Shown here: positions 11,576-30,015 of the stretch, one piece after another
How positions within the stretch are numbered: position 1 is the first letter of the stretch
Layout of the letters: each line of letters starts with the position of its first letter
Assembly: GCA_041745835.1 (NCBI GenBank)
Contig: JBGTIA010000745.1
Span: 1-31,362 of the forward strand
DNA length: 31,362 nt
DNA from: Ilumatobacteraceae bacterium
Lineage (GTDB): Bacteria > Actinomycetota > Acidimicrobiia > Acidimicrobiales > Ilumatobacteraceae
Direction of reading: 5' to 3'
Notes under the pieces: generated by a model
Databases searched by the model: none
The model's input: only the letters and a program-made list of their open reading frames with translations
What the model was told of the DNA's origin: nothing
Made by a program: the position numbers and the translations under genes

Positions 11576-14221
11576 CTACAGCAGCGGGTTCACCAGTATC
11601 CGGAACGTGGTGCTGCCGGTTTTGATTTTCACGCCGACGGACCATTGTCCGGTTTCGGTGGCCGTGTACGTGATGGCCTTGGGTGATGGTGACGGGGAGG
11701 TGTCGGAGGTGACGCTCGTGTTGGTCGAGTCGCGCAGGAACATGTTGACCTCGGCTGCAGGGTCGTCCCACTCGAGCACGACTTGGAGTTCGTCGCCGGT
11801 GGTGACGGGGAAGGCGAACGTCTGCCACGAGTTGGTGTCTGCTGACCCCGAACCCGCAAACTCGAACTCAGCGGCCGGCGGCGGAGGTGGCGGAGGTGGC
11901 GGAGGCGGCGGAGGCGTCGGCGCCGAAACGACTGGGTTGACCAGCACTCGGAACGTGGTGGTGCCGGACTTGATCTTGACGCCGACGGACCATTGTCCGG
12001 TTTCGGTGGCCGTGTACGTGATGGTCTTGGGTGACGGTGACGCACTGGTGTCGGAGGTGACGTTCGTGTTGGTCGAGTCCCGCAGGAACGCGTTGACCTC
12101 GGCTACGGGGTCGTCCCACTCGAGACGGATCTCCAGTTCATCGCCAGCGGTCACGGGGAAGGCGAACGTCTGCCAAGAATTGGTGGTGGCTGATCCCGAA
12201 CCCTCGAATTCGAATTCGGCGGCAGGGGTCGGCGGCGCAAAAGCGTCGCCGGGGGAGAGGAAGCTCAAGCCGGTGCCGTTCCAGGATCGGCCGTCGATGC
12301 CGGGCCCGCTGACAACGACATCAGTACCCGCCACGGGCTGATTGGCGTTCATCGTCACGCGGTGGAGCGTTCCGTCGGCGAGCCCGTAGTACAGCTGGCC
12401 TCCGACCGTTGCCATTCCCTTGACGCCCGCCCACGGGACAACACTCGACGTGGAGGCCACGAACTGTTGTGCTCCGATCAAGGGCGTCTCGGGCGTGAAG
12501 TACCGGTAGTACAGCGTCGACCTGCCGGCCAGTGTGTAGTACAGGCGACCCTGAGTGTGGTCGAAATACATCCCGGTGAGGTTTGCCACATCGAAGTGGG
12601 TGGAGGTCAAGCCGTTCAGGTTGACCTGCACCGGTGGAGCGAGTGTCGCGCCGTCGAAGCCGCGCGTCCAGAATGTCCCATCGGAGCGACCGTAAAAGAG
12701 GGCACCGCTGAGGTGCACCATGCCGCGCACGTTGTTCCACTCGGGATCGACGGCGAGTTGCGCCTCGCCGGACAGCACCGAGCCGTCGAAGGCCCACGAC
12801 CGAACCTCACCACTGCGCGCCAGGAAGACGCTCGTCGGCAGAGACGCCGGACTTGGCCGGGGAATTCCGCCGCCGCCGGCCAACGGCATGAACTTGAGGC
12901 GCGGTCTGAACTCGCCGTCCATGAAGTCGGTGTCGTCACCGATCCACAGCCCGTCGTCCTCGACCACCAGATCGAAGGTGCCGAGCCCGCGCGGGTTCCG
13001 GTCGGATCGCCACGAGAAGGGAAGGCCGTTGAGCGGATCGAGCGCAGCAATGCCTCGTCGTTCCACCGCTCCAGGACCAACTCGATCGGCTGCGAACGGG
13101 TTGTTCATCCAACGCTGGTGTCCGCCGGCGTACACCACATCGCCGGAGATTCCGACGCCGTAGAAGGTGTCGCCTCCCGAATACGACGCCCAAGTCGGCT
13201 TGACGTCGGTGCCCGACTGGGCGAGTTCCCATCTGGTGATGGTGTCGCAGGCCGGGTTGCCGCTCGTATAAGCACCCGTGGTTGCTATTGCGAAGTACGA
13301 GCCGTCCGGCGACACGTCCATGTCACGGATGTACTGCGGCCATTTGCTCGCCTGGCACTGGATCGAGAAGGTGTTTGTTCGCCAATCGGCCAGGACGGCG
13401 GGCACCGTGGTGAGGTCGATCACCGCGAGCCGGGGACGACTTGCGCCGTTCACGGTCGAGAAGTTGCCGACGGCCACCAGTCGTGACCGGTCGGGCGTGA
13501 CGTCGATCTTGTCGACGCTCAGACTGCCCGTCGTGCGAGTGGTGCTGTAGGGCCCGGCGAAGTCGAATGACACATCCGGCAGCAGGGCTCCGGTGGTCCC
13601 GTCGAGCGCTGCGAGGGCGTCGCTGTCGATGCCGTTCACTTTCGAGAAGTTGCCGCCGATGTAGAGCACGCCACCGGCCTCGACGAGGTCCATCACGCGG
13701 CCATTGGTGCGGCCGGTCCATCCCGACGAAATCTGGCCGGTCATGCTGAGCTTGGTGAGCCCCTTCCGGTTCGTCAACCCGTTCACCGTGTTGAAGCGAC
13801 CGCCGACGTACACGGACTGGCCGTCGCTTCCGGTGGCGAGGGTCCAGACCTCCGAGTCGAGCACCGGCGCAAACGACGGATCGATCGCTCCTGTTGTCTT
13901 GTCGAAAGCGAACAGGTACGGCTTCTGCTGTTCGACACCGCCCTGTGCGCGAATGCTCGTGAACGTGCCGCCGACGACGACTCGATTGCCGACGGTGGCG
14001 ATCGCGCGGACCTGGCCGTTCAGTACTTCCGGTGTGAAGTCGGCCGGGTCGGTGGACACGATGCCGTCGTGGGTCGTGAACGTGTCTGCGTTGGCCGGGC
14101 TGCCGCCCGGCCCGATGCCGGCGAACACGAGAGACGAGGCGAGCGTTGCCACGCCAACGAGGCCGCGCCAACGGCGGTCCCTCTTCCGAGAAACCTCGAT
14201 CGAAGACTTCGGTACCGCCAT
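11576..14221 (-). CDS. Large secreted beta-propeller protein (delta-60/DUF5122-like blades), with a second propeller-like domain and two PPC-like C-terminal repeats
   Basis: ATG at 14221 follows a GGAGG RBS (the ORF-track extension to 14731 overlaps the upstream gene). Signal peptide ends PANA. Repeated blades V.A.A..G..VYVGG.F..VNG....LAALD..TG. Duplicated ~100-aa C-terminal units separated by a poly-Pro run. Confidence 0.82.
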   Translation of the reverse strand: MAVPKSSIEVSRKRDRRWRGLVGVATLASSLVFAGIGPGGSPANADTFTTHDGIVSTDPADFTPEVLNGQVRAIATVGNRVVVGGTFTSIRAQGGVEQQKPYLFAFDKTTGAIDPSFAPVLDSEVWTLATGSDGQSVYVGGRFNTVNGLTNRKGLTKLSMTGQISSGWTGRTNGRVMDLVEAGGVLYIGGNFSKVNGIDSDALAALDGTTGALLPDVSFDFAGPYSTTRTTGSLSVDKIDVTPDRSRLVAVGNFSTVNGASRPRLAVIDLTTVPAVLADWRTNTFSIQCQASKWPQYIRDMDVSPDGSYFAIATTGAYTSGNPACDTITRWELAQSGTDVKPTWASYSGGDTFYGVGISGDVVYAGGHQRWMNNPFAADRVGPGAVERRGIAALDPLNGLPFSWRSDRNPRGLGTFDLVVEDDGLWIGDDTDFMDGEFRPRLKFMPLAGGGGIPRPSPASLPTSVFLARSGEVRSWAFDGSVLSGEAQLAVDPEWNNVRGMVHLSGALFYGRSDGTFWTRGFDGATLAPPVQVNLNGLTSTHFDVANLTGMYFDHTQGRLYYTLAGRSTLYYRYFTPETPLIGAQQFVASTSSVVPWAGVKGMATVGGQLYYGLADGTLHRVTMNANQPVAGTDVVVSGPGIDGRSWNGTGLSFLSPGDAFAPPTPAAEFEFEGSGSATTNSWQTFAFPVTAGDELEIRLEWDDPVAEVNAFLRDSTNTNVTSDTSASPSPKTITYTATETGQWSVGVKIKSGTTTFRVLVNPVVSAPTPPPPPPPPPPPPPAAEFEFAGSGSADTNSWQTFAFPVTTGDELQVVLEWDDPAAEVNMFLRDSTNTSVTSDTSPSPSPKAITYTATETGQWSVGVKIKTGSTTFRILVNPLL
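11579..12223 (-). repeat. Two tandem ~100-aa PPC-like C-terminal domains (11579-11875 and 11927-12223) separated by a poly-proline linker
   Basis: AAEFEF.GSGSA.TNSWQTFAFPVT.GDEL...LEWDDP.AEVN.FLRDSTNT.VTSDTS.SPSPK.ITYTATETGQWSVGVKIK.G.TTFR.LVNP occurs twice at an offset of 348 bp. Confidence 0.9.
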
Positions 14222-14242
14222 GTCACTGACCTCCGTACATTG

Positions 14243-14248
14243 AGTATA
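14243..14248 (-). promoter_or_regulatory. Possible -10 element (TATACT) upstream of the 14221 gene
   Basis: TATACT on the minus strand, 22 bp before the ATG and just upstream of the GGAGG RBS. No convincing -35 at 16-18 bp. Confidence 0.3.
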
Positions 14249-14346
14249 TCCGCCAGGTACGAGCAACAGGGCGCCGCCACGCACAGCGCTAGTGTGCCAC
14301 CTACCGTGACACTCCACAACTACGAGTTCCGTCAAGGTTTGGTCTC

Positions 14347-15627
14347 TCAGCCCGCTGTCGCAAAAATTGCCAGCCCCGGTTGATCGGTGCCGTCGACCCG
14401 GCTGAAGGTGCCTCCGATGACCAGCCGGTCGTCGGCCACCGCCACGACTTGGACGCCTTTGGGAGTGTCTGCCTGGACAAGTGGCTGGACTTCGGCGTCG
14501 ACCAGCGACACCCGAGCCGTCTTGCGTGCGGCGACTCCGGAAACCTGATCGAAATGACCGGCCAGCACCAGTTGATCGTCGTGGATCAGGCAATCGCGGA
14601 CGCCACCGTCCGTCCACGGCTCGAACGTCGCATCGGCCACCCCGGAGTCGGTGAACCGGCCCACATTGCGTTGCTCCTCTCGATCCCCGCGACCCTCGGT
14701 CGTCCACCAGTCGCCGCAGAGATACACCCACGATTCGTCGACGATGACCGTCCGGATCTGAACTCGATCGTCTTCGGGATTCGTGTCGGACAGCTGCGGA
14801 GAGAACTGCTCAGTGGACGTGCCCGTCGCGAAGTCGACGGCTCCGATGCCCTCCGCGTCCGTGTCGTTCAGCGTCTCGAAGTCGCCGCCGATGTAGACAC
14901 GATCGGTGCCACTCTCGGCGAAGGCGGCGATCCGAGGCTGCATCTCCCCGGCCTCGATCGACGGTTTGAACTCGGTGTCGAGCGCTCCGTCGGGGCCGAG
15001 CCGTGCCGCGCCGCTGCGTCTCTCCCCGTCGACGTCGCGGAAAGTCCCGCCGAGGTACACCGAACCCGACCGACCGACGTCGACAACGGCGACTCCGCCT
15101 CGTACCGACGTCGGTCCCCAGTCTTCGACCACCGAGCCGTCGCGGGCATCGACGGCGACGAAGTTGGTCCGTGGCGCCGAACCCGCCAGTTCGAACGAGC
15201 CGCCGAGCAGCACCATCTCGTCCAGCCAGGCAACAGTGCGAATGGTGCTCTCGCCCTCGATGCCGACCGCGAATGCGTCGAGTTCGCCGGTCACGAGGTC
15301 GCACGCCGCAATTCCCGGTCGAGCTTCGGTGCGCCCGGTGGAGTCGGTCACCGACGCGAAGTCGCCGACGAAGTACACCGTCCCGTTGGCGACGGTCAGG
15401 TCGGCCACCTCACCGTCAACGCTGCACGACGGCGCTGCGACGATCTCGTCGAGCGAGACGGTCGACGGCAGCGACGTTGTCGTCGGCGCTGCACTGGTGG
15501 TCGGTGCCGGGCTCGTCGGCGCACGGGTGTCCGAATCATCACCCGAACAGGACGCGATGACGAGGGCGACCAGGGCAGCGGCCGCCAGCTGCCGGTGGTC
15601 TCGGAGCCCGCTCCACCGAAGTGTCAT
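14347..15627 (-). CDS. Lipoprotein with a delta-60-like beta-propeller
   Basis: ATG at 15627 overlaps the upstream stop (ATGA). Lipobox VIAS-C, Thr/Pro/Ser linker, and blades such as VYFVGDF..V, VLLGGSF, VYLGGTF.DVDG..R.GAARL, VYIGGDF.TLN. Confidence 0.82.
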   Translation of the reverse strand: MTLRWSGLRDHRQLAAAALVALVIASCSGDDSDTRAPTSPAPTTSAAPTTTSLPSTVSLDEIVAAPSCSVDGEVADLTVANGTVYFVGDFASVTDSTGRTEARPGIAACDLVTGELDAFAVGIEGESTIRTVAWLDEMVLLGGSFELAGSAPRTNFVAVDARDGSVVEDWGPTSVRGGVAVVDVGRSGSVYLGGTFRDVDGERRSGAARLGPDGALDTEFKPSIEAGEMQPRIAAFAESGTDRVYIGGDFETLNDTDAEGIGAVDFATGTSTEQFSPQLSDTNPEDDRVQIRTVIVDESWVYLCGDWWTTEGRGDREEQRNVGRFTDSGVADATFEPWTDGGVRDCLIHDDQLVLAGHFDQVSGVAARKTARVSLVDAEVQPLVQADTPKGVQVVAVADDRLVIGGTFSRVDGTDQPGLAIFATAG

Positions 15628-16526
15628 CCCCATGGTGGTTCCAGACCGGTCAGCTCCGTCAGCCGCTGGCTCGAGGCGGCGAAGTGTGATTCGAGCGATC
15701 GTCGAGTCGACGGCCGGATAGGGTCGTACGAACCCGAGTTGTGCTGACGAAGGACGACGGCCGACGACGGCTCGACCCCGAGAAAGCTCTGGATCTGTTC
15801 GAGACCCGCTTGCGGATCGGCCACCAGCTGTTCGGTGATCAGCACCAACATCTGCTCGGCAGAGAACAAGGCGAGATAGCGCTCGAGTTGCTCGGCGTAG
15901 TGTCCACGCGCCAGGTAACTGGCGTGCTGGTGCGCTGACGAACGGTGCGACGGGTCCTCGAGCAGATACTCCGTGGCCCCCACCAGGCGATCGGCTTCGG
16001 CTTCGATGGCCTGCTCGAACGTCGGGAGATGTTCGTGCCCTTCCCAGATCATGTGCTGGTACTGGGAGTACGCACGAGCGACAGGGTCGCGCAGCAGAAC
16101 GATCAACCGTACGTCGCTGGCGACTGCGTGCAGTCGTTCGGCAACTGCAGGATGGAAGAAATAGTACGGGCTCGACTCGCCCACGATGAGCCGACGGCAG
16201 GCGCCGGCCTCCCGTGCGCGCTCACGCTCGGTCGGGAAATGGGCCTGATACCAGTCGAGTGAGCGGCTGTAGTTGGTGTCGAAGTAGTGGGCGCCCTTGG
16301 CGCCGATCACCAACTCGCCGATGTCGTCGTGCTCTGTCAGGGCGCGGTACAGAGACGTCGTCCCGCACCGTTGCGCACCGATGATGGCGAAGTCGGGCAT
16401 GGGCCGCTGCCCAGGGGTCAGCCGCCGAAGGCCAATGGCTGCCTCGAGCACCACCCGCCGACCGGTGCGGCGGCCACGCCGTCGGATGCCGCTGGTCGAC
16501 GGGAGGCGTGTGCGAAGAGAATTCAC
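15624..16526 (-). CDS. PAPS-dependent sulfotransferase (heparan-sulfate 3-O-sulfotransferase-like motif set)
   Basis: 5'-PSB IIGAQRCGTTSLY; KGAHYFD; GESSPYY; 3'-PB LLRDPVARAYSQY; YLARGHYAEQL. The GTG start overlaps the kinase stop (GTGA). Confidence 0.92.
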   Translation of the reverse strand: MNSLRTRLPSTSGIRRRGRRTGRRVVLEAAIGLRRLTPGQRPMPDFAIIGAQRCGTTSLYRALTEHDDIGELVIGAKGAHYFDTNYSRSLDWYQAHFPTERERAREAGACRRLIVGESSPYYFFHPAVAERLHAVASDVRLIVLLRDPVARAYSQYQHMIWEGHEHLPTFEQAIEAEADRLVGATEYLLEDPSHRSSAHQHASYLARGHYAEQLERYLALFSAEQMLVLITEQLVADPQAGLEQIQSFLGVEPSSAVVLRQHNSGSYDPIRPSTRRSLESHFAASSQRLTELTGLEPPWG

Positions 16527-17785
16527 GGCCGTATCCCTGCGCGTCCGCCGCCTTCGACGTGCAGCGCTGCGAGCATCGGGCCGAACTTCGTGTCATGTCC
16601 GGGGAGGCCGGCAGAACTCGCCTCGGCAAATCGGACCACCATCTCCAACAGGTCCAACACGACGAGTGCCTCTGCGGCTTCATGGGGTCGGCCGGCTGCG
16701 GCGAGGTGGCGCGCAGTTCGAGCCTCGACGGCGTGGTGGTCGAGCAGCCGTGACCGAACCGTCTGCCGACCTCCGGCCAGCGCGAAATGGGCGAGGTCCA
16801 TGTTTCGGGGGAGGTCCGGTCGGCTCCGCTCCCAGTCGATCGCGACGAGGCGGCTGCCGTTCAGCCCCAGATTCGATTTCGCCCAGTCGCCGTGACCACG
16901 ACCGAATTCGAATTCACGCTTGTGCCACCGATGCTCGACCATGGCGTGCGACCGTTGGAGCGTTCCGTCGGGGTCGTGACCGTCGTCAGCGAGATGATGA
17001 ATCCTCGTGGTCATCGCCGACCAGAAGGAACTTGCCGCCAACGTGTCACGTCGTGATGGGCACGCCTCGAAGATCTGGTCGGAGATTCCGTGAGGGAGAT
17101 CGGAGTTCGTCGGCAGTGACCGCATCGGGACCGACGTGGTGACGAGGACGTCGCACTCCGACCATGAGCCGCTGAACAGAACCGTCGGAAGCGTCGCCGG
17201 AAACGGAGCGTCGGCCAGCTCAGCAAGAGTCGCCGCCTCGGCACGCACCAATCTGGACACGAGCGGTTGCGGGCCGAACTTGAGAAAGCAGATCGGGTCA
17301 CCGTCCGGTGAGATGGCCGCGATGACGATCTTGGCGTTGGGGCGGCCGGACGTCAGTCTGATCGCAAGCGAAAAGTCGGTGGTCCCCACGATGTCCCCGA
17401 GGAAGTTGCGTAGCGGCGATACGCCGTCGGTTGACGGGCCCACCAACGAAAGATGGCCCGCCAGCCAGTGCCCGACGCCCGACGCACCGGCGACCGTGGC
17501 GGCCGCGTCGCGCCACTTGTCGGCGATCGAGAAGCAGTGCAGTGCCCCCCTGAACTCTCGACCGCCGTGGGGAGCAAGAAGTCGGAGCCGGCCTTGCGGA
17601 GGGAGCGTCCGGAACTGCTCGAGTGCACCGGGCACGTCGGTGCCACGGACGAAACGGTAGCCGGGTGTATTGCCGCTGAGGATAGTGAGCGCCGTTGCAA
17701 GTGAACCGCTGAGCTCGTCGGCGTCTACGTAGCCATTGCCATCTTTCGCTCTCGGTCGACTCCGTCTTGCACCCCGCACCCACAT
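16523..17785 (-). CDS. Aminoglycoside phosphotransferase-like (protein kinase-like fold) kinase
   Basis: FLKFG (ATP Lys), AEAATL (helix Glu), catalytic loop HGDWAKSN (HGDxxxxN) and metal-binding IDWE. The start codon is uncertain. Confidence 0.8.
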   Translation of the reverse strand: MWVRGARRSRPRAKDGNGYVDADELSGSLATALTILSGNTPGYRFVRGTDVPGALEQFRTLPPQGRLRLLAPHGGREFRGALHCFSIADKWRDAAATVAGASGVGHWLAGHLSLVGPSTDGVSPLRNFLGDIVGTTDFSLAIRLTSGRPNAKIVIAAISPDGDPICFLKFGPQPLVSRLVRAEAATLAELADAPFPATLPTVLFSGSWSECDVLVTTSVPMRSLPTNSDLPHGISDQIFEACPSRRDTLAASSFWSAMTTRIHHLADDGHDPDGTLQRSHAMVEHRWHKREFEFGRGHGDWAKSNLGLNGSRLVAIDWERSRPDLPRNMDLAHFALAGGRQTVRSRLLDHHAVEARTARHLAAAGRPHEAAEALVVLDLLEMVVRFAEASSAGLPGHDTKFGPMLAALHVEGGGRAGIRP

Positions 17786-17827
17786 GATCCTAGACGGCGC
17801 ACTTCGAAGCGAGGGATTTCGCTCTAA

Positions 17828-19347
17828 CCCGGATCTTTCATAGGGCTGCTTGAGCGGCGGGTGGTCCGGTGACGGTGAGTGACTGGAATGCGGTGCGGAC
17901 TCGGTGGATGGCGTCGATGACGATCGGGGTCCAGGGCCAGTCGTGATCGAGGCGGAGTCGGGGGCTGTTCGTTGTGATCCGTGCGGCGACGTGAAGCATC
18001 CGGTGCCGGATCGTTTTCGGTGTGGCGCGTCGGAGTTGGCCGGTGCAGCCGATGCGCTGCGCCCAGCCGAGCAGGTCGTTCGCGGTGAAGCACAGGTTCA
18101 TCCAGACCTCGTTGTTGACGACGTCATCGAAGGGCAGGTCGGAAAGTCCGCAGGCTTTGGCGTCGCGGATCACGTTCTCGGCGCGCGCTCGTTGGCGTTG
18201 CTGCAACTCGAGTCCGGCGACATCGAAGCTGGTCTGGGTGGTGATGAACGCGGTGTGGCGGAACCCTTCGATCGTGTCGAACAACGACCGCTGCGCGCCC
18301 GGGTGCGGTCGCTCACGCCTGACGATCAGGCGGGTCCCGTCGGGCCAGGTGGACAGGTCGACGAACTCGGTGAGTTCGACAACTTCGGCGCCGTCACGAC
18401 GAGCGCCGCCGGCGTCGACGGCAGGGTGCCAGCAGCCGGTCGGGACCATCATGACGCCGTCACGCACGCGGTGATCGATGTGGAACCCGAACGAGTAGTC
18501 GAGGTTGCGCGCAACGCATTCCTCAGCGAACCAATGGCTTGCTCCGCCAGCATCAGCACGGATCAACACCCGATGCGCCACCAAGTTCGGGTCGTCGCCG
18601 ACGTTGTGCCCGGCGGACCATTCGCCAGGGAGTTGGTCGAGGGCGTCGGCCAGGACGGTGACGTGATCGATTGCGGTGTTCGACCCGGCGTTGCCCGGCC
18701 GCAGCTTCGCGCACAGCACCTCGTCGGTCTCAGCGATCATCGCCAGCAAAGGGTGATGGCCGTAGCCGCGTTTGTAGTTCGGGCGGGCGTCTTGCTTGTC
18801 GGCTTTGGTGTTGATCAACGTCGCGTCGAAGTCGATGATCAGATCGTCACCGGCCGGCCCAGCACCCGCAGACCACGCCCGCTCCCGTGCCGCTGCCCGC
18901 GCTGCGGCGATGCCACGAAGTTCGACCGGGCCGATCTGGTCGAAGGTGCGCCACACCGTTGCTTCGGACGCAACCGGCCCGAACATCGAGCGTTGCGAAC
19001 GGATCGCAGCCAGATCCGACAGACACGTCGCGCCGTCGAGCGCGAGGATCATCTGCGCGAGCGTGCGACCTGGATCGTGTCGACGCTGCGGAACCGATGC
19101 CATCGCTGTGCTCAGCCCGGCGGACAAGCCGGCGAGGTCGGCGGTCTCTGCAAGCCACGCGATCCCGGCGTGAGACACGATCCCGGCACCGTCGCCAGTC
19201 ACCGTGCGCGTTCGAATCAGACTGCTACCTTGAACCATGAGAACGCCCTTCGAACCGTGGGAAATGATTGATGTGTCGCAACACCAATCATCCCCTGTCG
19301 GAGGGCTTTTTCACGCCACCGCCAGCCAGCCCTACGCAAGATCCGGG
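17828..19347 (-). mobile_element. IS1380-family insertion sequence, 1520 bp, apparently intact
   Basis: 21-bp imperfect TIRs (CCCGGATCTTtCaTAGGGCTG at 17828-17848; CCCGGATCTTgCgTAGGGCTG as reverse complement of 19327-19347; 19/21). 4-bp direct repeat CTAA at 17824-17827 and 19348-19351. One transposase ORF. Confidence 0.93.
17838..19238 (-). CDS. IS1380-family DDE transposase
   Basis: SHAGIAWLAE, LIIDFDAT (D), NYKRGYGHHPL, LRPGNAGSNT, LIRADAG (D), RARAENVIRDAK (E). The stop codon lies inside the TIR. Confidence 0.93.
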   Translation of the reverse strand: MVQGSSLIRTRTVTGDGAGIVSHAGIAWLAETADLAGLSAGLSTAMASVPQRRHDPGRTLAQMILALDGATCLSDLAAIRSQRSMFGPVASEATVWRTFDQIGPVELRGIAAARAAARERAWSAGAGPAGDDLIIDFDATLINTKADKQDARPNYKRGYGHHPLLAMIAETDEVLCAKLRPGNAGSNTAIDHVTVLADALDQLPGEWSAGHNVGDDPNLVAHRVLIRADAGGASHWFAEECVARNLDYSFGFHIDHRVRDGVMMVPTGCWHPAVDAGGARRDGAEVVELTEFVDLSTWPDGTRLIVRRERPHPGAQRSLFDTIEGFRHTAFITTQTSFDVAGLELQQRQRARAENVIRDAKACGLSDLPFDDVVNNEVWMNLCFTANDLLGWAQRIGCTGQLRRATPKTIRHRMLHVAARITTNSPRLRLDHDWPWTPIVIDAIHRVRTAFQSLTVTGPPAAQAAL

Positions 19348-20883: not shown

Positions 20884-20917
20884 GACGGGGTCGGATGACG
20901 GAGTGTGTCGCCGGACA

Positions 20918-21790
20918 TCAGCGGCTGGGTCGTCGCCAGCCGAGATCTCGCCCGAGGTGGTCGTACAGTCGCTGATTGTCCTCGTCCACCTCGGCCGCCA
21001 TCCGATCCATCACAGGGGTCGACGTAGCCTGTCGCCGATAGCTGTTGTGAACCTTCGCATCACGCAGTTCGAATCGTTCCGCCTCGACGAAGTCGACGAC
21101 CTGATCGAGGATGGACTGCGGATCGGCGAAGAAGTCCTCACTCGTGATCGTCAGTACGCGGTCGGGGCCGTACACCTTCTCCCACACCAAGAGCTGATCG
21201 AGATAACGGCCGCGAGACAGGTATGCGTGATGCTGATGGCTGAAACTCTGGTACGACGGATCACTGATGATGCGTTCCATCTCGCCGGCCAAGCGCTGCG
21301 GCTCCGCGTCGAGCGCCGCCTCGAGGTCGAGGTGTTCGTAGCCCTTGGCGGTCTCGTGCTGATGTTGCGAACGCGCCCGCTCGACCGGATCACGAAGCAG
21401 GGCGATGATCCGGGCCTCCGGTAGCAAGTCGCCGGCTCGTTGAGCCGCAAGGGGATGGAACAGGTAGTACGGGGTGGCGTCGGCCGTGAAGATCCCATCA
21501 CGACGAGCCGGGAAGTGGGAGAAGTACCACTGTTCCCCGCGATCGAAGTGCTGATCGAAATAGTGGATCTCTTTGCGAACGGGCGGCACGAAAGCCGGAT
21601 GTTGCTGCAGGTACTTCTGGAGCGAGGTCGTCCCGGATCGCTGCGCCCCGACGATCAGAAGCTCCGGCTCGAGCGCTGTCCGGCCAGGTACGTACTGTCG
21701 AAAACCGATGGTTCGAACCAGCGCCGAGTAGGCGAGCCGTTCCGCCCGACCGCGGAGACGACGCGATACTTCGGGAGGAACGATGGTCAT
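20918..21790 (-). CDS. PAPS-dependent sulfotransferase (heparan-sulfate 3-O-sulfotransferase-like motif set)
   Basis: IVGAQRSGTTSL, KEIHYFD, DATPYY, LLRDPVERARS, YLSRGRYLDQL. Paralog of 15624-16526. Confidence 0.93.
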   Translation of the reverse strand: MTIVPPEVSRRLRGRAERLAYSALVRTIGFRQYVPGRTALEPELLIVGAQRSGTTSLQKYLQQHPAFVPPVRKEIHYFDQHFDRGEQWYFSHFPARRDGIFTADATPYYLFHPLAAQRAGDLLPEARIIALLRDPVERARSQHQHETAKGYEHLDLEAALDAEPQRLAGEMERIISDPSYQSFSHQHHAYLSRGRYLDQLLVWEKVYGPDRVLTITSEDFFADPQSILDQVVDFVEAERFELRDAKVHNSYRRQATSTPVMDRMAAEVDEDNQRLYDHLGRDLGWRRPSR

Positions 21791-21835
21791 GAGAACACCT
21801 GACGTCCCAGCCTCGACGAGCGCACAGTCCCTATC

Positions 21836-23281: not shown

Positions 23282-24741
23282 GCGGCAATCGAATCCTGTT
23301 CGCTCGAATCCGATTGCCCGGTGTTGCGTTTGCCCGTCGATCGCCGCACCGTACGCCGCAAGCGCTGTCGGATCGTCGGGGCCCTTTCCACGACGGTCCA
23401 GCACCTCTGGACCCCTGCGCGTTCTGCGAGGAGCGCAGCGGCTTCGAGATCGTCGCGACGAGTCCGTCCCACTCGGGCAACGACCACCAACACACCAAGC
23501 GTCGCCGCCAGGTCGCAAGCGTCGGGGCTCGAGAGTACGGGGCGACAGTGGACGAACGCCGTGCCGTCACCCAAAGATGCAAGTTCCTTCTCCATGGCGT
23601 GGTCGATACCGTCGCGGTGCGCGCTGCGAGGAAGAGGGAGCCGTACCTGGACGAGGCCGGACCTCTCCGGCAGGGGGGTGTCGCCGTCATCCAGTGAGAG
23701 CAGCATCGTGTGCCGGCCAGTCTCGACGTGCGCGACAGCAATGTTGTCGATTGCCCGTGACGCTGCAGATTCGGGAACTACACCGGCCAACACGAGCGCT
23801 GATCGGCCGCCACCGGCCGCCGCGAATCTGGCCGCGGTCGCTGTCCGTTGCAGTGACTCGGGAACGTTTCCAGGCTCGAGCACGTCGAGCGTGAATGGAA
23901 TTTCGCCGATCACATTGCCGAGAAGTCGTTGAACGTCGCCGGTGGAGCGCACCGACGGGTCGAGGCGGTCGACCACGAATGCCGCCACGAGAGCGACCAG
24001 CAAGCCGAGCGCCACGCTGACCCCGATGAGTGCCATCGCGGGGATACCCGAACCGCCCAATTCCTCGACGGTCGTGCTGGTGGTGACGACGCCCCGATCG
24101 AGTGGCTCGAGCAATAGCACGCTGGTGTCGCCTCGAAGCCGAGTGAGCTGGTTCTGCAGCACCGATACCAGTGCGGCGGCGGACGTCGCTGCCGGCGAGT
24201 CGTCCTCGCTCGAGGATAGGAGGTCGGTCTGTTCGCGCAGCTCGTCGGTGACGCGCTGGATTTCTACGGTGCTGCTGTCGAGACGAACGCGGCGCTGCTC
24301 CTCCAACGAGGCCACCCGTTCCTGCAAGTACGCCTCGGAGAGGCTCGCAGAGATGAGTCGGGCGGTCTCGGGGTCGTCAGCCGTCACAGCGAACGACAAG
24401 ATCGGTCGCTCCGGCACGGCGCGAATCTCGACATCACGATCTAACGAGATGGAATCGTCAACCGGCCCGGCGACCCCCAACGCCGCGGTCTCGACACGAT
24501 CGGATCGGGCGAACTCGACCTCCGGCTCGAGCGGCGGCAGTTGAACTCCGCTGAACGGCGGTGCGATCTCGGTGGTCGCGCGGTATTCAACAGCCGGTGG
24601 CGCCTGGCGATCGGCGATCAGAAGCCCGGCAGCCGACACGAGCAGCGTGACGCCGACGACGAGGAACGCACGACGTCGCACCACGGCGACATAATCTCCG
24701 AACTCGGTCGGCGCAGGTGGCGGAGAGCCGAAGTCGGTCAT
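23278..24741 (-). CDS. Wzz/Wzc-like polysaccharide co-polymerase with a degenerate tyrosine-kinase-like C-terminal domain
   Basis: DYVAVVRRR..LVVGVTLLV (Wzz N-terminal TM), coiled-coil, second TM followed by DRLDPSVRSTGDV.RLLG..IGEIP. The P-loop-like region lacks GK[ST], and there is no C-terminal Tyr cluster. Confidence 0.85.
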   Translation of the reverse strand: MTDFGSPPPAPTEFGDYVAVVRRRAFLVVGVTLLVSAAGLLIADRQAPPAVEYRATTEIAPPFSGVQLPPLEPEVEFARSDRVETAALGVAGPVDDSISLDRDVEIRAVPERPILSFAVTADDPETARLISASLSEAYLQERVASLEEQRRVRLDSSTVEIQRVTDELREQTDLLSSSEDDSPAATSAAALVSVLQNQLTRLRGDTSVLLLEPLDRGVVTTSTTVEELGGSGIPAMALIGVSVALGLLVALVAAFVVDRLDPSVRSTGDVQRLLGNVIGEIPFTLDVLEPGNVPESLQRTATAARFAAAGGGRSALVLAGVVPESAASRAIDNIAVAHVETGRHTMLLSLDDGDTPLPERSGLVQVRLPLPRSAHRDGIDHAMEKELASLGDGTAFVHCRPVLSSPDACDLAATLGVLVVVARVGRTRRDDLEAAALLAERAGVQRCWTVVERAPTIRQRLRRTVRRSTGKRNTGQSDSSEQDSIAA

Positions 24742-24780
24742 CTCAATTCCTTGGGCATGGGGGTCTCCTCGAGAGCGGAA

Positions 24781-25872
24781 TCAGAGCAGGGCACCGAGCA
24801 CCGTGCCATGGGGGTAGGCCGCTTGTTGCTCGGGCCACTGCAGCAGGAAGACATCGGTGACCGGTCGGATGAGGCGGGCGGTCATCGTCACGAGGTCGAT
24901 GCGGTCGTAGACCTCGACGTAGACGGTGACCGTTCCGAACAGCCGCGACAACCAGAAGAACGGCACAGCAACGCCTGCTCCGGTGGAGACGATGACGTCG
25001 GGTCGTTCCTTGTACATGAGTCGCGCAGCCAGTGCGAGATTGCGAATGAGGTTCGGAATGTTGCGCGTGGTGGGAGTGAAGGCAAACCTCACTCTCTCGA
25101 ATTCGAGGAGCGATCGCACCGACACGAGGTCGAAACTGACCCAAGAACGTTCGTGCTTCGCGAACCACGGTTTCAGGGCCCAGCACTGCGCCAGATGTCC
25201 GCCGCCCGATGTCACCAGCATGATGTGGTATTGCTCAGGGCTGGAGTCCGGGCGCCGACGGCGTCTGAAGCGTTGCGGAAGGCGTGGCTTACCCGGACGT
25301 TCTCCGAGGTACACCGCGCGATCAACCACAGCAGCAAACGCATCGATGGTGGCCTCGAGCTGGCCAGCATCACCGACTTGGCGTGTCCGTTCCGGCTCGG
25401 AGAGTTGAGCGTCGATGAGCGCGGTCAGCTGGTGCATGTCGTTGGCGATCACGACGTTGCCGCGATCCGACATGAATTTCGCGAAGCGCTGCTGGTGGCT
25501 GTCGATGTGTTCCCCCCGGCCGGGGTCACGTGGTACCACGATCGGCACCCGGCCGCACTTCATCGCATCCGTGATCGTCGCTGGGCCACCGTGGCAGACG
25601 ACGACGGTCGCCGATTCCATGTACTTGGCCATCTCGGCAGGGGTGAAGTACGGCTCACTGTCGCCGTCGGCTGCGTTTCTCGACGTGCCGGTCTGGCACA
25701 CCGCCCGGATCGGAATGCCCTCTTCCCGTCGGGCGCGGACGTAGTCGTCGACGTAGTCGATCAGTCGGTCGAACTTGTGGTGGTCGGTGCCGACGGTCAC
25801 GAAGAGGTCGATGCTTTCGGAATCGTCGTCTCTCAGCACAATCGGTTCATTCGGTGTCTTCACATCCGCCAT
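24781..25872 (-). CDS. Fused PssE/CpsG (Alg13-like) and PssD/CpsF (Alg14-like) glycosyltransferase
   Basis: GGGAGG RBS before ATG 25872. N-half LFVTVGTDHHKFDRL...VVCHGGPATI...PIVVPR...GEHIDSHQ is PssE/Alg13-like. C-half MLVTSGGGHLAQ...DVIVSTGAGVAVPF...VYVEVYDR...FLLQWPEQ...YP...LG is PssD/Alg14-like. One uninterrupted frame. Confidence 0.9.
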   Translation of the reverse strand: MADVKTPNEPIVLRDDDSESIDLFVTVGTDHHKFDRLIDYVDDYVRARREEGIPIRAVCQTGTSRNAADGDSEPYFTPAEMAKYMESATVVVCHGGPATITDAMKCGRVPIVVPRDPGRGEHIDSHQQRFAKFMSDRGNVVIANDMHQLTALIDAQLSEPERTRQVGDAGQLEATIDAFAAVVDRAVYLGERPGKPRLPQRFRRRRRPDSSPEQYHIMLVTSGGGHLAQCWALKPWFAKHERSWVSFDLVSVRSLLEFERVRFAFTPTTRNIPNLIRNLALAARLMYKERPDVIVSTGAGVAVPFFWLSRLFGTVTVYVEVYDRIDLVTMTARLIRPVTDVFLLQWPEQQAAYPHGTVLGALL

Positions 25873-25890
25873 GCGCCCTCCCATCTATTG

Positions 25891-28602
25891 TCAGAAGATC
25901 CTGAGTGTCTTCTGGTACGCGCCGACAGCCGGATTGCCCGCTTGGTCAGTCATCGTCGAGTCGGCCAAGAAGGTGACCGTCGTCTGCGGCCCAACCGTCA
26001 GCAGGTCACAGTCGCCCGAGCACGTGCCCAGAGTCAGCGTGGTCGCGTCGCCGACGCCGCGCAACTCGAACGGTGATGCGAGGAACACCACTTGAGCGCC
26101 GGATCCGGTGATGAACCCGGGCGAACCTAGAGCGAGCACGCCGAAGAACGACGGGGCACTCAAGACGTCGTCGGATGCGCCGCCGTCGCTGAGACTCACG
26201 TCGATCGTCGAACGAATCGACGAGGCGTCGATCACCTCACTCCAGTCGACCGACAGGGTGTCTCCGGCCTCGGCGAGACCCGTCGTCCCGCTGTTCGACT
26301 TGCGAAAAGACAAGGGGACCGGGCCGGCCCCGTCGGAAGGTGATGTGAGAGCAAACGCAGCGTGATTCCCAGCAGCGTCCTGAATGGCGTTCGCTGCGTC
26401 GAGCGACACCTGCATGTCGCTCACCGCCGTCGAAGGCGCACCGACCCCTTCGACGATCAAGATGGATGCGACGTTGCCCGCAATCGAAACGCTGGTCAAC
26501 TGCCCGCCCGACGGGACATTCATCGCCGACCAGCCCGAAAGACACGGTGCGGTGCAAGTGGCGAGCGGCTCGTCGAACTCGGCGCGAACACTGTCGACGA
26601 GACCATCTTGGTCGATGTCGAGCATCACCAGCGCGACGAGCGTCGGCGGTGTTACGTCGGCCGGATCGGGGATGCGCACGGTCGTGAGGGTGCTTGCCTG
26701 ATTGTCCGTGGGATCGGCGTCGAGTCCTGTCGTGGTGACAGTCGCCGATGCAATGACCGTCTGCGGCTCTGCAGGCGCGACTGCGTCGACCGTCACCACG
26801 GCGATACCTTGGGAATTGACATCACCCAGGGTGCAGCTCACCGCCCCGATGAGCACGCTGCATGCGCCCGCCGAGGTGGTGACTCCCGCAACTGAGATCG
26901 GCGGGTCGAGTGCGAGTTCGAGGATGACACCGGGGGCGGCGTCTGGGCCGTCGTTCGAGACGGTGACGGTGTACTTCACAGTTCCCGAGACCTCGACCGG
27001 ATCTGCGAACGGCTCGATGACGACTGACACATCAGCGGTGCCCGGCACTGCATCGACACTGGTCTGCACGGTGACGGCGTTGTTGGAGACGTCAGGATCG
27101 GCAGCGTCGGAGAGCAGCGCCAGCGTCGTCTCGGCCAGTCCGGCCGCCGACGCCGTGAAGGTCAACGAGACGTCGGTCGTGTCGCCCGCGTTGACGAGCC
27201 CGACCTCACAGGTCACCACGGACGTGGCCGGGTCGGTCAGACACGGAATGGACGACGACCACAATGCGAGTGCAGGCGGGACGGTGACGGTCAATTGGAC
27301 GCCGGCCGCGCCCCGAGGACCCGCGTTGGCGATACGAGCACTGTACGTGACAGCGTCGCCGACCGAGATCGCGTCGGCCGATGTCGATGCAGTGATCGAC
27401 AGGTCAGCCGTGGTGGGAGCCTGATCGTCGATGAACTGGGCGAAACCCTGCTGGTCCCGTCCCCCCACTCGATCGAAATCTCCGCTGATGTGGAGGTACG
27501 GGCCACGCGCATCGACATCGACAATGCCCTTGATGCCGTTGACCCGAGGATTCCAAGTGGGGTCGACCGCACCGGTGACCAGATCGACGCGAGCGAGTTG
27601 GTTGGTCTCGAAGCCTCCGATCTTGAAAAAGTGCCCTCCGAAGTACCCGAAGTCGCCACTTGCGGCGACGCCCTGGACGTTGCCGTCGGCGCGGACGCTC
27701 CAGAGTTCCTCGCCGGTGCTCCTGGCGAACGCGCCTGCCGTACCGCCAGGGCCAGCGCCTGCCAGGAGTATCCGGTCGCCGACGAGTTCGATGTCGAGCA
27801 CCGGATACGAGGGGTGATCGGTGGGGAAGAGAGCCCCGGAGACGGGGTCGAGCGCAGCGAGTCCCCTCGCTGGGACACCGTTGACCGTGGAGAAGGAGCC
27901 GGCGGCGAAGATGCGATCGCCGTCAGCGATGAGCTTCATGACCCGAGCATTCGCGGCCGGTCTCCAGGTCGGATCGAGAGCACCAGTCTGCGCATCGAAT
28001 GCGGCGAGACGGGTGCGCGGCTCGGTGCCGATGTTGCCGAAGAAGCCGCCGATGTAGACCTTGTCGGCGGAGGCAGCGACGGACCGTACCCCCTTGTCGG
28101 GAGCGGACGTCCTGAAGCCGAGGAGTGCGCCGCTCGCCAGGTCGAATGCAGCGACGTTCTTCCGGTTGACCGAACCCACCTTGCCGAAGGAACCGACGAC
28201 GTACAGCTTCGCCCCGTCGGGCGAGACGCTCAACGCGTTGACCGTTCCGTTCACATTGGGATTCCAGCTGGTGGGAACACCTGTCGCCACGTCGATGGCG
28301 GCCAGTCGGTTCCGGCCGACCGACGTGCCGTTGCCGTCGTCGAGCGAGGTGAACTTGCCGCCGATGAACAGCGTGTCACCGCTCTGCACGACTGCGTTGA
28401 CGAGGTCGTTGGCCTGCCACGTGTCGCTCGGCGTCACCGGGAATTCGGCTTCGGCGACACCTCCGACCCATGGAACGACTGCCACGGCAATCGCGAGTGC
28501 TGCAACCGTGCGAAGCAGTGCGCTCGACCGCAATCGGCGTTCGACTTGCGGCAAGCCCGAACGTTCACCGGCAAGCCGGCGCTGGTCATGGGCGGAGTTC
28601 AT
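25891..28602 (-). CDS. Large secreted protein: delta-60-like beta-propeller, two DUF11-like domains and C-terminal Ig-like domains
   Basis: Signal peptide ends VAEA; blades LFIGGKF, LYVVGSF, VYIGGFF, IFAAGSF, GYFGGHF; two ADLSI/ADVSV...GD.VTY...I.N.GP..A.GV units (DUF11 pattern); DIDQDGLVD and I/T.D.AGN motifs. The start overlaps the sulfotransferase stop by 17 bp. Confidence 0.82.
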   Translation of the reverse strand: MNSAHDQRRLAGERSGLPQVERRLRSSALLRTVAALAIAVAVVPWVGGVAEAEFPVTPSDTWQANDLVNAVVQSGDTLFIGGKFTSLDDGNGTSVGRNRLAAIDVATGVPTSWNPNVNGTVNALSVSPDGAKLYVVGSFGKVGSVNRKNVAAFDLASGALLGFRTSAPDKGVRSVAASADKVYIGGFFGNIGTEPRTRLAAFDAQTGALDPTWRPAANARVMKLIADGDRIFAAGSFSTVNGVPARGLAALDPVSGALFPTDHPSYPVLDIELVGDRILLAGAGPGGTAGAFARSTGEELWSVRADGNVQGVAASGDFGYFGGHFFKIGGFETNQLARVDLVTGAVDPTWNPRVNGIKGIVDVDARGPYLHISGDFDRVGGRDQQGFAQFIDDQAPTTADLSITASTSADAISVGDAVTYSARIANAGPRGAAGVQLTVTVPPALALWSSSIPCLTDPATSVVTCEVGLVNAGDTTDVSLTFTASAAGLAETTLALLSDAADPDVSNNAVTVQTSVDAVPGTADVSVVIEPFADPVEVSGTVKYTVTVSNDGPDAAPGVILELALDPPISVAGVTTSAGACSVLIGAVSCTLGDVNSQGIAVVTVDAVAPAEPQTVIASATVTTTGLDADPTDNQASTLTTVRIPDPADVTPPTLVALVMLDIDQDGLVDSVRAEFDEPLATCTAPCLSGWSAMNVPSGGQLTSVSIAGNVASILIVEGVGAPSTAVSDMQVSLDAANAIQDAAGNHAAFALTSPSDGAGPVPLSFRKSNSGTTGLAEAGDTLSVDWSEVIDASSIRSTIDVSLSDGGASDDVLSAPSFFGVLALGSPGFITGSGAQVVFLASPFELRGVGDATTLTLGTCSGDCDLLTVGPQTTVTFLADSTMTDQAGNPAVGAYQKTLRIF

Positions 28603-29536
28603 ATCCGTAACGAACCATGAGCGGGAATGTCATCGCCGCGATCACCGCCTGTTGGCGGCCCGCCATGGTCTGCTTCCATGCGTCGTCGCCGCGCAGGGGA
28701 ATCCAGCCTGATTGGTGGCGCATCGGGTTGCCGATCACGGTGTGTGTGAGGCCGAGTCGTACGCCTTTCGGCCCGAGGAAGTCCGAGAACGATGCATCGG
28801 CATTGACCCCGACGAGTTCGAGAATCCGTCGTAGGTGCGTTTCCGGGTTACGCACGAGATCCTCGTACCGAAGCAGGACATGGGGGGAGCCGTGCTCGAC
28901 CACGTGCATCTCCGCGTTGTACGTGACATACCGTGCGGCGCCGCTGAACCATGAGTAGCGAGGCATGTAACGTGTCATATCGAGGTCGTCCTCCATGCGA
29001 ACCTGCTTCATCCACGATGTCAGCGTGCCGCGCGGGTCGCGCACGAGATGCACGAAACGCGGTTCGATGCCCGGCGTCGCTTCAAGGAGGGCGGCGAACG
29101 AAGCGATCTTCGACGAGTCGACGATCACCTTGGCGCCCGACACCTCGCGCATCGCCCGGTAGAGGTTGGCCAGGATCTCGCCATACTCCGCAACCGCATC
29201 GTCGGTACGCGACCGGATCCCCTTGCGACGCACTGCGGGAAGATGCCACGGCTTGTCGACGAGCGAGCGGAGTTCGTCGAGGCGCACCGGATCCAGCTGG
29301 TCCCAGCCCCCGAAGGCCGTGCTGCCGACGGCTCCCCAGAACTCGCACTCGGCGAAGCGCTCTCCACAGCCGCACACTCGGTTCTCCACGAGACCGCGGA
29401 GGAATACGTCACGGATCTCCCCGACACAGACATACCCGTCGACGGCGCCGAGCATTCGCGACAGAAGCGTGCTGCCGCTACGTCCCCAACCGCCGATGAA
29501 CAACGTGTGAACGCTGTGCGGATTTCTGCTGTCCAT
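28586..29536 (-). CDS. PAPS-dependent sulfotransferase (Sulfotransfer_3/CHST-like motif set)
   Basis: FIGGWGRSGSTLL (5'-PSB), VCGCGERFAECEFW, IVDSSK, HLVRDPRG (3'-PB), LRYEDLVRNP. Confidence 0.92.
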   Translation of the reverse strand: MDSRNPHSVHTLFIGGWGRSGSTLLSRMLGAVDGYVCVGEIRDVFLRGLVENRVCGCGERFAECEFWGAVGSTAFGGWDQLDPVRLDELRSLVDKPWHLPAVRRKGIRSRTDDAVAEYGEILANLYRAMREVSGAKVIVDSSKIASFAALLEATPGIEPRFVHLVRDPRGTLTSWMKQVRMEDDLDMTRYMPRYSWFSGAARYVTYNAEMHVVEHGSPHVLLRYEDLVRNPETHLRRILELVGVNADASFSDFLGPKGVRLGLTHTVIGNPMRHQSGWIPLRGDDAWKQTMAGRQQAVIAAMTFPLMVRYGYELRP

Positions 29537-29940: not shown

Positions 29941-30015
29941 CCTGGTTCCCCGCGCCCGGGTCTCCAGGACCCTCGATCGAACTCCGGGGTACCCCTCCGT
30001 CATGATGCATGGCGT

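Follow-up and report, generated by a model that had tools for sequence, protein, structure and literature searches.

A horizontally acquired gene island in a hot-spring Acidimicrobiia genome, predicted to build a sulfated Wzx/Wzy glycan accompanied by secreted propeller proteins

Could an actinobacterium assemble a sulfated polysaccharide, and with which proteins would it handle such a polymer? Sulfated polysaccharides are valued biomaterials, and among bacteria they have been called essentially cyanobacteria-only (PMC8205485, PMC13390465). The question is raised by a 31,362-nucleotide stretch of DNA, hereafter the window, from an Ilumatobacteraceae bacterium. The window is an entire contig (C745; GenBank JBGTIA010000745.1), the longest in a 749-contig metagenome-assembled genome (MAG; G000) with a completeness of 74%. 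An island of about 28.9 kb within it joins three sulfotransferases (ST1, ST2 and ST3), an APH-fold kinase (KIN) and a Wzx/Wzy assembly pathway to a series of large exported proteins. We consider it likely that this island makes secreted propeller proteins along with a Wzx/Wzy glycan that is sulfated and probably also phosphorylated. The sulfate, the phosphate, the length of the repeat, the sequence in which the steps occur, whether the polymer ends up as free exopolysaccharide or linked to the wall, and the role of the propellers are predicted here from the genes.

Genes were called from a listing of open reading frames (ORFs) combined with Pfam and NCBIfam scans, and signal and transmembrane (TM) segments by hydrophobic-segment analysis. 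The genes, in order along the main operon and then beyond it, are as follows.

28586-29536, minus strand: ST1, a cytoplasmic Sulfotransfer_3-type sulfotransferase of 316 aa (PF13469, E=2.7e-16)
25891-28602, minus strand: PROP903, an exported delta-60/DUF5122 beta-propeller with two DUF11/CARDB domains and, at the C-terminus, a region of unknown fold
24781-25884, minus strand: GT, a fused PssE/PssD (Alg13/Alg14-like) glycosyltransferase
23278-24741, minus strand: Wzz-like, a Wzz/PCP-like protein that has a pair of TM segments, its C-terminal domain being cytoplasmic
21836-23281, minus strand: Wzy, a Wzy_C-domain membrane protein, putative polymerase
20918-21790, minus strand: ST2, a Sulfotransfer_1 enzyme of heparan-sulfate type (PF00685, E=5e-14)
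19348-20883, minus strand: Wzx, flippase
17828-19347, minus strand: IS1380 element (transposase gene 17838-19238)
16523-17785, minus strand: KIN, a 420-aa, APH-fold (eukaryotic-like) putative small-molecule kinase, cytoplasmic
15624-16526, minus strand: ST3, a Sulfotransfer_1 enzyme of heparan-sulfate type (PF00685, E=5.6e-20)
14347-15627, minus strand: PROP428, a DUF5122 delta-60 beta-propeller lipoprotein
11576-14221, minus strand: PROP883, a large secreted propeller with two tandem PPC domains
7084-8820 and 8899-11082, plus strand: a GH26-like pair (GH26a and GH26b), secreted and convergent with the main operon
4127-6775, minus strand: a GSDH-like propeller/Ig protein (PF07995, E=5e-46)
2370-4049, minus strand: a LamG/PKD protein (PF18911, PF13385)
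1129-2112, minus strand: GT2 glycosyltransferase (PF00535, E=2e-29)

The main operon occupies the minus strand between 29536 and 11576 and comprises 12 co-directional genes. An initial annotation of the window had described its gene content and strand correctly but counted 11 genes; it overlooked the IS1380 insertion, whose transposase lies between wzx and the kinase gene, as well as the absence of a priming transferase from the window. The four overlapping or coupled junctions that it named are exact in position: the ST1 stop (28586) and PROP903 start (28602) overlap by 17 nt, the Wzz-like stop (23278) and Wzy start (23281) by ATGA, the KIN stop (16523) and ST3 start (16526) by GTGA, and the ST3 stop (15624) and PROP428 start (15627) again by ATGA. 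It had also put seven exported proteins at about half of the island (~14.9 kb); they sum to 14,901 bp of the 28.9 kb, each with an N-terminal signal-like or lipobox segment, with PROP883 starting at ATG 14221 and not at the GTG (14731) of a longer ORF. The contrast it drew between few glycosyltransferases and many modifying enzymes holds as well: there are two glycosyltransferase genes, as against three intact sulfotransferases and an intact APH-fold kinase.

A Gene Set Conserved across Rearrangement and across Phyla

The strongest argument for a single sulfation-centred function comes from an Acidimicrobiaceae MAG (G041, contig CAVPAQ010000024.1). The full complement of 14, ST1 through GH26b plus GSDH, is present there (14/14, 42%–74% identity), but the arrangement differs, forming two convergent operons. 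The first carries cysD, cysN/cysC, a sulfate permease gene, ST2, Wzx, KIN, GSDH, ST3, PROP428, a Bac_transf gene on the opposite strand, PROP883, GH26a and GH26b; the second, facing it, carries ST1, PROP903, GT, Wzz and Wzy. It is because the set has been kept through this rearrangement, with genes for the synthesis of 3'-phosphoadenosine 5'-phosphosulfate (PAPS) and for sulfate uptake attached to it, that one shared function suggests itself.

Related loci were sought with a 9-sequence alignment of the kinase, and 20 KIN-centred neighbourhoods of 20 kb each were tallied from a sample of 400 Actinomycetota genomes. (This sample includes five genomes flagged as unpublished, G164, G132, G092, G361 and G045, on which only counts rest.) The KIN family occurs in 38 of the 400 genomes and is concentrated in few families. 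Sulfotransferase genes are found in 16 of the 20 neighbourhoods (both subfamilies in 15), Wzx in 15, Wzy in 15, GT2 in 13, propeller proteins in 13, GH26-like genes in 12 and PssE/PssD in nine; locus L063 also has LamG, GSDH and GT2. Of the four neighbourhoods free of sulfotransferases, one is a truncated contig and the other three are among the four weakest kinase matches. The background density of sulfotransferase genes reaches about 6 per 3-Mb genome, yet they are present in 16 of 20 windows of only 20 kb, a co-occurrence far above chance. At the level of whole genomes, Sulfotransfer_1 is found in 37/38 KIN-positive genomes versus 115/362 KIN-negative ones. The initial annotation had treated the sulfotransferases, Wzx/Wzy, propellers and GH26 proteins as belonging together, and their recurrence around KIN in these 20 neighbourhoods agrees with it. 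A lack of joint conservation had been named there as grounds for refuting the idea; the set is conserved both in G041 and across the KIN neighbourhoods, which supports that reading.

Viewed at the gene level, these numbers contradict a restriction of sulfated polysaccharides to cyanobacteria, as roughly one in ten of the Actinomycetota genomes sampled has the coherent set and over a third have Sulfotransfer_1. The set combines sulfotransferases of two subfamilies with an APH-fold kinase, Wzx/Wzy and GH26-like proteins, to which delta-60 propellers are often added; it is mobile as an island and reaches the Gammaproteobacteria. Sulfotransfer_1 (PF00685) as such is present in 152 of the 400 genomes, and in nearly every genome of some families (31/31, 25/26).

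Outside the Actinomycetota, the KIN family is found in Proteobacteria, namely in Granulosicoccaceae MAGs (L010-L012) and in Caenispirillum bisanense (L013). In the three Granulosicoccaceae MAGs, which are marine gammaproteobacteria, KIN is followed by an ST3 orthologue (46%–50% identity), and two of the three have ST1 at 60%–62% identity alongside KIN-ST3. Their sister MAG encodes, beside KIN-ST3, a protein 41% identical to PROP883 over 862 aa with both PPC domains, and in 5/5 genomes tested the best match to PROP883 is encoded less than 15 kb from KIN. Grouping of the KIN-ST3, ST1 and PROP883 homologues in these MAGs suggests that the module has moved between phyla.

Sulfotransferases, PAPS Supply and the Kinase

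All three sulfotransferases are matched by both the Sulfotransfer_1 and the Sulfotransfer_3 Pfam profiles, with E-values from 3e-16 to 6e-20. The 5'-phosphosulfate loop GxxRxG[ST]T and the 3'-phosphate motif RDP are kept in ST1, ST2 and ST3 and are invariant across 13 ST2/ST3 homologues. In ST1 the 5'-phosphosulfate-binding (5'-PSB) motif reads GGWGRSGST and the 3'-phosphate-binding (3'-PB) motif RDP; the motifs of ST2 are GAQRSGTTS, KEIHYFD and RDP. A search of the Protein Data Bank (PDB) with the ST2/ST3 family profile matched heparan sulfate glucosamine 3-O-sulfotransferases (3-OST; E=5e-32) and the sulfotransferase domain of NDST (E=2e-27). ST1 is 74% identical to its G041 orthologue, as against the 60%–62% seen in the Granulosicoccaceae MAGs and 38%–39% to the gene in the WpsB position of Paractinoplanes (see below). 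With their catalytic motifs intact, the three proteins look like functional PAPS-type enzymes. None of them, nor KIN, has a signal peptide or TM segment, and they would therefore act in the cytoplasm on a lipid-linked unit.

No PAPS-synthesis gene is present in the window. A CysN/APS-kinase fusion of the same MAG lies on another contig (C703, 8.4 kb, L008), and PAPS-synthesis genes adjoin the orthologous loci in G041/L006 and in Paractinoplanes. We also considered KIN as a substitute for APS kinase, a role that we rejected on account of its unrelated fold and of the CysN/CysC fusions in its own genome and in G041. On C703 the CysN/APS-kinase fusion adjoins a GT2 gene whose product is 28% identical to the island GT2.

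KIN has no Pfam match even at E<=10; PF01636 misses the window protein and is recorded on two other members of its family. The initial call of an APH kinase accordingly stands by motifs and fold, but not by Pfam. Across 50 homologues the invariant columns are K152, E183, H298-G-D300, N305 and D317-W-E319, that is, a catalytic lysine, a glutamate, an HGDxxxxN loop and a DWE motif, a pattern that fits kinases of the APH/choline-kinase (eukaryotic-like) type. An AlphaFold2 (AF2) model of KIN (pLDDT 89) has as its top Foldseek matches APH(3'), maltokinase, homoserine kinase II and fructosamine-3-kinase (E about 2e-7; probability 1.0 against APH(3'), with a TM score of 0.6-0.7 by target). The match covers residues ~117-420 and is preceded by an extra N-terminal domain of ~115 aa. 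Since these structural relatives phosphorylate hydroxyls of sugars and small molecules, a sugar-hydroxyl kinase would be the most economical reading of KIN. A search of 1.8 billion representatives places 1640 proteins in the family at E<=0.001, and the two nearest relatives (47%–49% identity) are encoded on metagenome contigs in the order ST2-Wzx-KIN. Through the GTGA overlap, KIN is predicted to be translationally coupled to ST3. KIN and a sulfotransferase gene are neighbours again in loci of Acidimicrobiia, other Actinomycetota, Paractinoplanes and Granulosicoccaceae; a structure prediction for a KIN-ST3 complex scored 0.00, which has no bearing on binding either way.

Assembly Machinery and a Proposed Pathway

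The fused glycosyltransferase carries PF04101 (Glyco_tran_28_C, E=2e-14) and PF08660 (Alg14, E=8e-13), and its NCBIfam matches (WelK, PssD and PssE) are all under the equivalog cut-offs. It is 57% identical to its G041 counterpart; in most other loci the PssE and PssD halves are separate, adjacent genes. Wzx matches PF01943 (Polysacc_synt, E=7.7e-11) above the cut-off, as well as MatE, has 12 hydrophobic segments and is 65% identical to the proteins of L006, L007 and G041. Wzy has a Wzy_C domain (PF04932, E=5.3e-14) and at least nine hydrophobic segments, with 65% identity to G041 and 32%–33% to the protein in the WpsJ position. The TM segments of the Wzz-like protein, at residues 18-36 and 239-257, give it the two-TM topology of a polysaccharide co-polymerase (PCP); it is 42% identical to the G041 protein and 26% identical to that in the WpsK position, which itself has weak Wzz and GNVR matches. 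Two PF00953 (Glycos_transf_4) genes lie elsewhere in the same genome. A Bac_transf primer gene is situated inside the orthologous G041/L006 locus, between PROP428 and PROP883, and is missing at that spot in the window.

These components can be arranged into a provisional pathway. A lipid-linked repeat unit would be started on the cytoplasmic face, probably by a housekeeping primer of the WecA/TagO type encoded outside the island, and lengthened by the fused PssE/PssD enzyme and GT2 into what may be a short-repeat glycan, which the initial annotation took for a possible glycosaminoglycan-like exopolysaccharide. Before export, the three soluble PAPS-dependent sulfotransferases (two of the heparan sulfate 3-OST/NDST type and one of the Sulfotransfer_3 type) would O- or N-sulfate the unit, and KIN, coupled to ST3, would phosphorylate a sugar hydroxyl. 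Wzx would then flip the modified unit, and the Wzy_C protein would polymerise it together with the Wzz-like protein. Outside the cell, a secreted set of three propellers (one of them a lipoprotein), two GH26-like proteins, the GSDH-like protein and the LamG/PKD protein would bind, trim or anchor the polymer.

Relation to Known Systems

According to the initial annotation the system was a candidate undescribed one, with no characterised actinobacterial pathway of this architecture known. This is outdated, as the wps-1 cluster of Actinoplanes missouriensis (WpsA-K plus AMIS_7390; Appl Environ Microbiol, June 2026; PMC13390465) has the same core. WpsA-K are encoded in the order GT2, sulfotransferase, GT26, DUF4262, GH26, methyltransferase, Wzx, heparan-sulfate-type sulfotransferase, kinase-like, Wzy and Wzz, and a sulfate adenylyltransferase/APS kinase gene adjoins the cluster (PMC13390465). 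Deletion of most single genes gave squashed sporangia; knock-outs of Wzx, Wzy, Wzz, the sulfotransferase WpsH, the kinase-like WpsI and the CysNC-like gene share this defect, and the product is proposed to form part of the sporangium's matrix (PMC13390465).

For sequence comparison, loci of Paractinoplanes ferrugineus and P. deccanensis stood in for A. missouriensis. Both were found through the KIN-family profile, and both have exactly the published wps-1 order, reversed. The proteins in the WpsI position match that profile at E=1e-99 to 1e-101 and are 28%–29% identical to the window KIN. Eight window genes have homologues in these loci at 26%–42% identity: ST1 at 38%–39%, ST2/ST3 at 38%–42%, KIN as given, Wzx and Wzy each at 32%–33%, Wzz at 26%, GH26a/b at 27%–33% and GT2 at 37% (N-terminal part). 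The window would thus be a diverged relative of wps-1. Like wps-1, the island pairs a Sulfotransfer_3-type sulfotransferase with a heparan-sulfate-type one beside a kinase-like gene, and shares Wzx, Wzy, Wzz, GT2, GH26 and a link to PAPS synthesis. It differs in having a fused PssE/PssD enzyme instead of GT26 (WecG/TagA), three sulfotransferases instead of two, and neither the methyltransferase nor the DUF4262 protein; Pfam and NCBIfam scans found no GT26, SAM methyltransferase or DUF4262 domain in any island ORF. The propeller, GSDH-like and LamG/PKD genes, all present in the island, are absent within 10 kb of wps-1, and, unlike wps-1, the island is mobile, interrupted by an insertion sequence (IS) and derived from a hot-spring Acidimicrobiia MAG.

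Synechan (xss) of Synechocystis sp. PCC 6803 (eLife 2021) is the sole such bacterial system in which sulfate content and gene cluster are both established (PMC8205485). Compared by shared families, it resembles the island in its Wzx/Wzy/PCP pathway and its cytoplasmic sulfotransferases of distinct subfamilies (two in xss). However, it has eight glycosyltransferases and an eight-sugar repeat, as against two glycosyltransferases in the island, its own XssQ/R/S regulators and a diderm host in which an outer-membrane export component (OPX) is needed, and it lacks the kinase, propeller and GH26 partners that the island has. Wzx/Wzy sulfation beyond cyanobacteria is also represented by the Wzy-type capsule clusters of Vibrio sp. 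KMM 8419 and Cobetia marina KMM 1449, which include sulfotransferases and whose sulfated polymers are chemically solved (PMC11641403, PMC11766843); the comparison is with their descriptions, the available parts of which mention no kinase or propeller partners. The Granulosicoccaceae loci are nearer relatives of the KIN-ST3-ST1-PROP883 module than are these Vibrio and Cobetia clusters.

The core gene set is therefore widespread in Actinomycetota and related to wps-1, and hence no new kind of system. What is new is the conserved propeller, GH26-like and GSDH partners of a sulfation cluster, the insertion of the island into a site that is empty in same-genus genomes, and a kinase-sulfotransferase-propeller module common to different phyla. 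The secreted propeller/GH26/GSDH module, the cross-phylum spread and the kinase family would all seem worth following up; the last, unnamed and with about 1,600 members, offers a testable target, as its wps-1 counterpart WpsI is needed for the Actinoplanes phenotype. The conserved secreted partners offer another.

Propellers and Other Secreted Proteins

That propellers are co-encoded with the pathway, as initially annotated, is borne out by their conservation with the set in a second Acidimicrobiia lineage, in several actinobacterial families and in the gammaproteobacterial MAGs. PROP903 (PF01345, DUF11, E=1.8e-28; PF17164, DUF5122, E=5e-8) has an N-terminal hydrophobic segment at residues 32-50 and is 52% identical to its G041 counterpart over 895 aa. 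PROP428 (PF17164, E=5e-12; 53%–55% identical to L006 and G041) has the lipobox LVIAS|C, directly followed by a Ser/Thr/Pro-rich linker, TSPAPTTSAAPTTTSLPST. Its AF2 model (pLDDT 87) is a generic seven- or eight-bladed propeller, the nearest solved folds being BamB, WD40 proteins, designed propellers and CylK, and its neighbours in the AlphaFold database (AFDB) are delta-60 proteins bearing LPXTG, IPTL-CTERM, T9SS or dockerin anchors. In 18 homologues the invariant columns are all Gly or Phe, a pattern more in keeping with binding or scaffolding than with catalysis.

PROP883 (PF04151, PPC, E=2e-13) is 68% identical to its G041 counterpart. At its C-terminus (window 11586-12233) a 348-bp unit is tandemly duplicated at 84% identity and encodes the two PPC domains, which are parted by a run of 14 prolines. 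The GH26-like proteins (PF02156, E=2.7e-7 and 1.8e-5) are homologous to the product of the WpsE-position gene, and their genes stay beside PROP883 in L006 and G041; GH26a contains a Pro/Thr/Ala linker. In the N-terminal half of GH26b (window 9021-10100) there is a triple 390-bp tandem repeat (76%–78% identity) encoding a domain of ~130 aa, which has no Pfam assignment and has paralogues on more than 20 other contigs of the MAG.

The GSDH-like protein is 65% identical in G041, where its gene lies between KIN and ST3, and is a variable member of the set. L006 and L009 (G041:C24) share 90.7% DNA identity and differ by a 2.5-kb indel carrying the GSDH-like gene between KIN and ST3; L006 retains a short 3'-end remnant of the gene, and in L007 GSDH directly follows KIN.

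The label of matrix protein for the propellers is reasonable though putative, with a role as glycosylation substrates being a live alternative. One might tentatively propose, as a possibility that we would not rate highly, that the propeller, GH26-like and GSDH-like proteins are a dedicated extracellular module for handling a sulfated, phosphorylated glycan in monoderms. Such a module would bind, anchor or shape the polyanion, a role without described counterpart in Wzx/Wzy systems, and would travel with the kinase-sulfotransferase pair between Actinomycetota and Gammaproteobacteria.

A Complete IS1380 Element in the Operon

The element between wzx and the kinase gene is a complete IS1380 insertion, with a DDE transposase (NF033539, 264.7 bits versus a cut-off of 180), terminal inverted repeats (19/21 first positions match) and a short target duplication. 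Read along the minus strand, the IS end CCCGGATCTT comes directly after the wzx stop codon, TAG, and the transposase stop is followed by the IS terminus AAGATCCGGG and then by TTAG. The 4-bp duplication, TTAG, lies at 19348-19351 and 17824-17827; the element spans 1520 bp and sits exactly at the wzx stop codon. Its removal would leave 38 nt between wzx and the kinase gene, and no IS occupies this junction in the homologous loci L006, L007 and L009.

Near-identical DNA is present in four runs, all from one hot-springs metagenome study, and both IS junctions are bridged in contigs from three of them. An IS-free wzx-kinase junction was not seen in contigs of the four runs, but contigs drop rare variants, so one may exist. 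Depth over the IS in the source metagenomes (measured over 17823-18998) is 5-20x that of its flanks, and the same IS is found with other flanks in the community, one of which also ends in TTAG. Both observations suggest a multi-copy and probably active IS in this community.

Weighing the Alternatives

Several points weigh against a sulfated Wzx/Wzy polymer. No sulfate has been shown chemically for any member of this cluster family, nor anywhere in Actinomycetota, and the authors of the wps-1 study state that sulfation awaits verification (PMC13390465); the four runs holding the locus are all DNA runs. The Wzy_C domain is common to polymerases, ligases and O-oligosaccharyltransferases and cannot tell them apart. 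The initial call of a co-polymerase is upheld by topology, but PF02706 falls below its cut-off (E=0.009, 16.7 bits versus 25.5). There is no priming phosphoglycosyltransferase in the island, and no PF02397 match turned up in the MAG, which is 74% complete. The fold search with PROP428 returned generic propellers and no functional match, and the IS1380 element, by separating wzx from four downstream genes, may have a polar effect on them.

Three rival explanations were considered. If the polymer were a wall-linked anionic glycopolymer, a sulfated counterpart of teichuronic or teichoic acids, fastened to peptidoglycan by LCP enzymes instead of being released as exopolysaccharide or matrix, then priming by a WecA/TagO-type enzyme (one of the two PF00953 gene products) would be as in wall polymers, the lipoprotein PROP428 would sit at the membrane-wall interface, and a monoderm actinobacterium would neither need nor, as is the case here, have an OPX export component. 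The island also adjoins a LytR_C-domain gene. That gene, however, belongs to the pre-existing insertion site outside the island, no LCP catalytic domain lies within the island, and the proposal for A. missouriensis is that the wps-1 product belongs to the sporangium matrix (PMC13390465), so that on balance we think a wall polymer unlikely. Somewhat less probable again is that the window holds a decaying or silenced copy that makes no finished polymer, with the IS polar on kinase, ST3, PROP428 and PROP883, the primer lost and the GH26-like proteins possibly dead catalytically. The IS does lie exactly between wzx and the kinase gene, and the Bac_transf gene of G041 and L006 is missing here, with none found in the MAG; but completeness of the MAG is just 74%, a primer gene is likewise missing from within wps-1-type clusters, and all 18 island ORFs are intact, with no frame broken. 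The IS is moreover intergenic and co-directional, and the genes beyond it could be transcribed by read-through or from an outward promoter. ISEcp1, also of the IS1380 family, drives downstream genes in this way.

Protein O-glycosylation, in which the Wzy_C protein would act as a PglL/WaaL-like ligase or O-oligosaccharyltransferase and place a sulfated oligosaccharide on Ser/Thr/Pro-rich linkers of secreted proteins, the propellers being its substrates, seems to us improbable, and more so than either of the preceding explanations. It draws on the nature of PF04932, an O-antigen-ligase domain common to WaaL, PglL and some Wzy, on the weak Wzz call, on the linker TSPAPTTSAAPTTTSLPST after the PROP428 lipobox and the Pro/Thr/Ala linker of GH26a, and on the half of the island taken up by exported proteins. 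Yet in G041 and Paractinoplanes, as in the window, a two-TM PCP-like protein is kept beside Wzy_C, which fits polymerisation, and the existence of propeller-free wps-1-type loci implies that the core works without these candidate substrates.

Island Boundaries and Insertion Site

The island (~28.9 kb, about 1049-29898) was acquired horizontally, by insertion into a site that is empty in same-genus genomes. An imperfect direct repeat of 42-55 bp, with 86% identity over 42 nt between its copies, flanks it.

1006-1047, plus strand: left-hand copy of the direct repeat that borders the island, at the 3' end of the LytR_C gene
29899-29940: right copy, paired with 1006-1047

In at least 11 same-genus genomes (loci L071, L077, L083 and L089 among them) the LytR_C gene lies directly beside the small ORF and the TauD gene that, in the window, flank the right end, with nothing inserted. 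The single LytR_C 3' end of L071 aligns to both window copies, at 1006-1060 and 29899-29960; this and the empty site argue for an insertion with a flanking direct repeat. There is no integrase or recombinase within the 28.9 kb. The fused PssE/PssD glycosyltransferase was not found in the 24 same-genus genomes searched, nor the KIN family in the 12 same-family genomes searched.

A 148-aa ORF at 29564-30010 straddles the island boundary, has no family match and is probably no gene. The TauD/TfdA-family dioxygenase gene at 30409-31350, despite its sulfur-related family name, is outside the island and forms its core-genome flank, being 76%–86% identical across most same-genus genomes.

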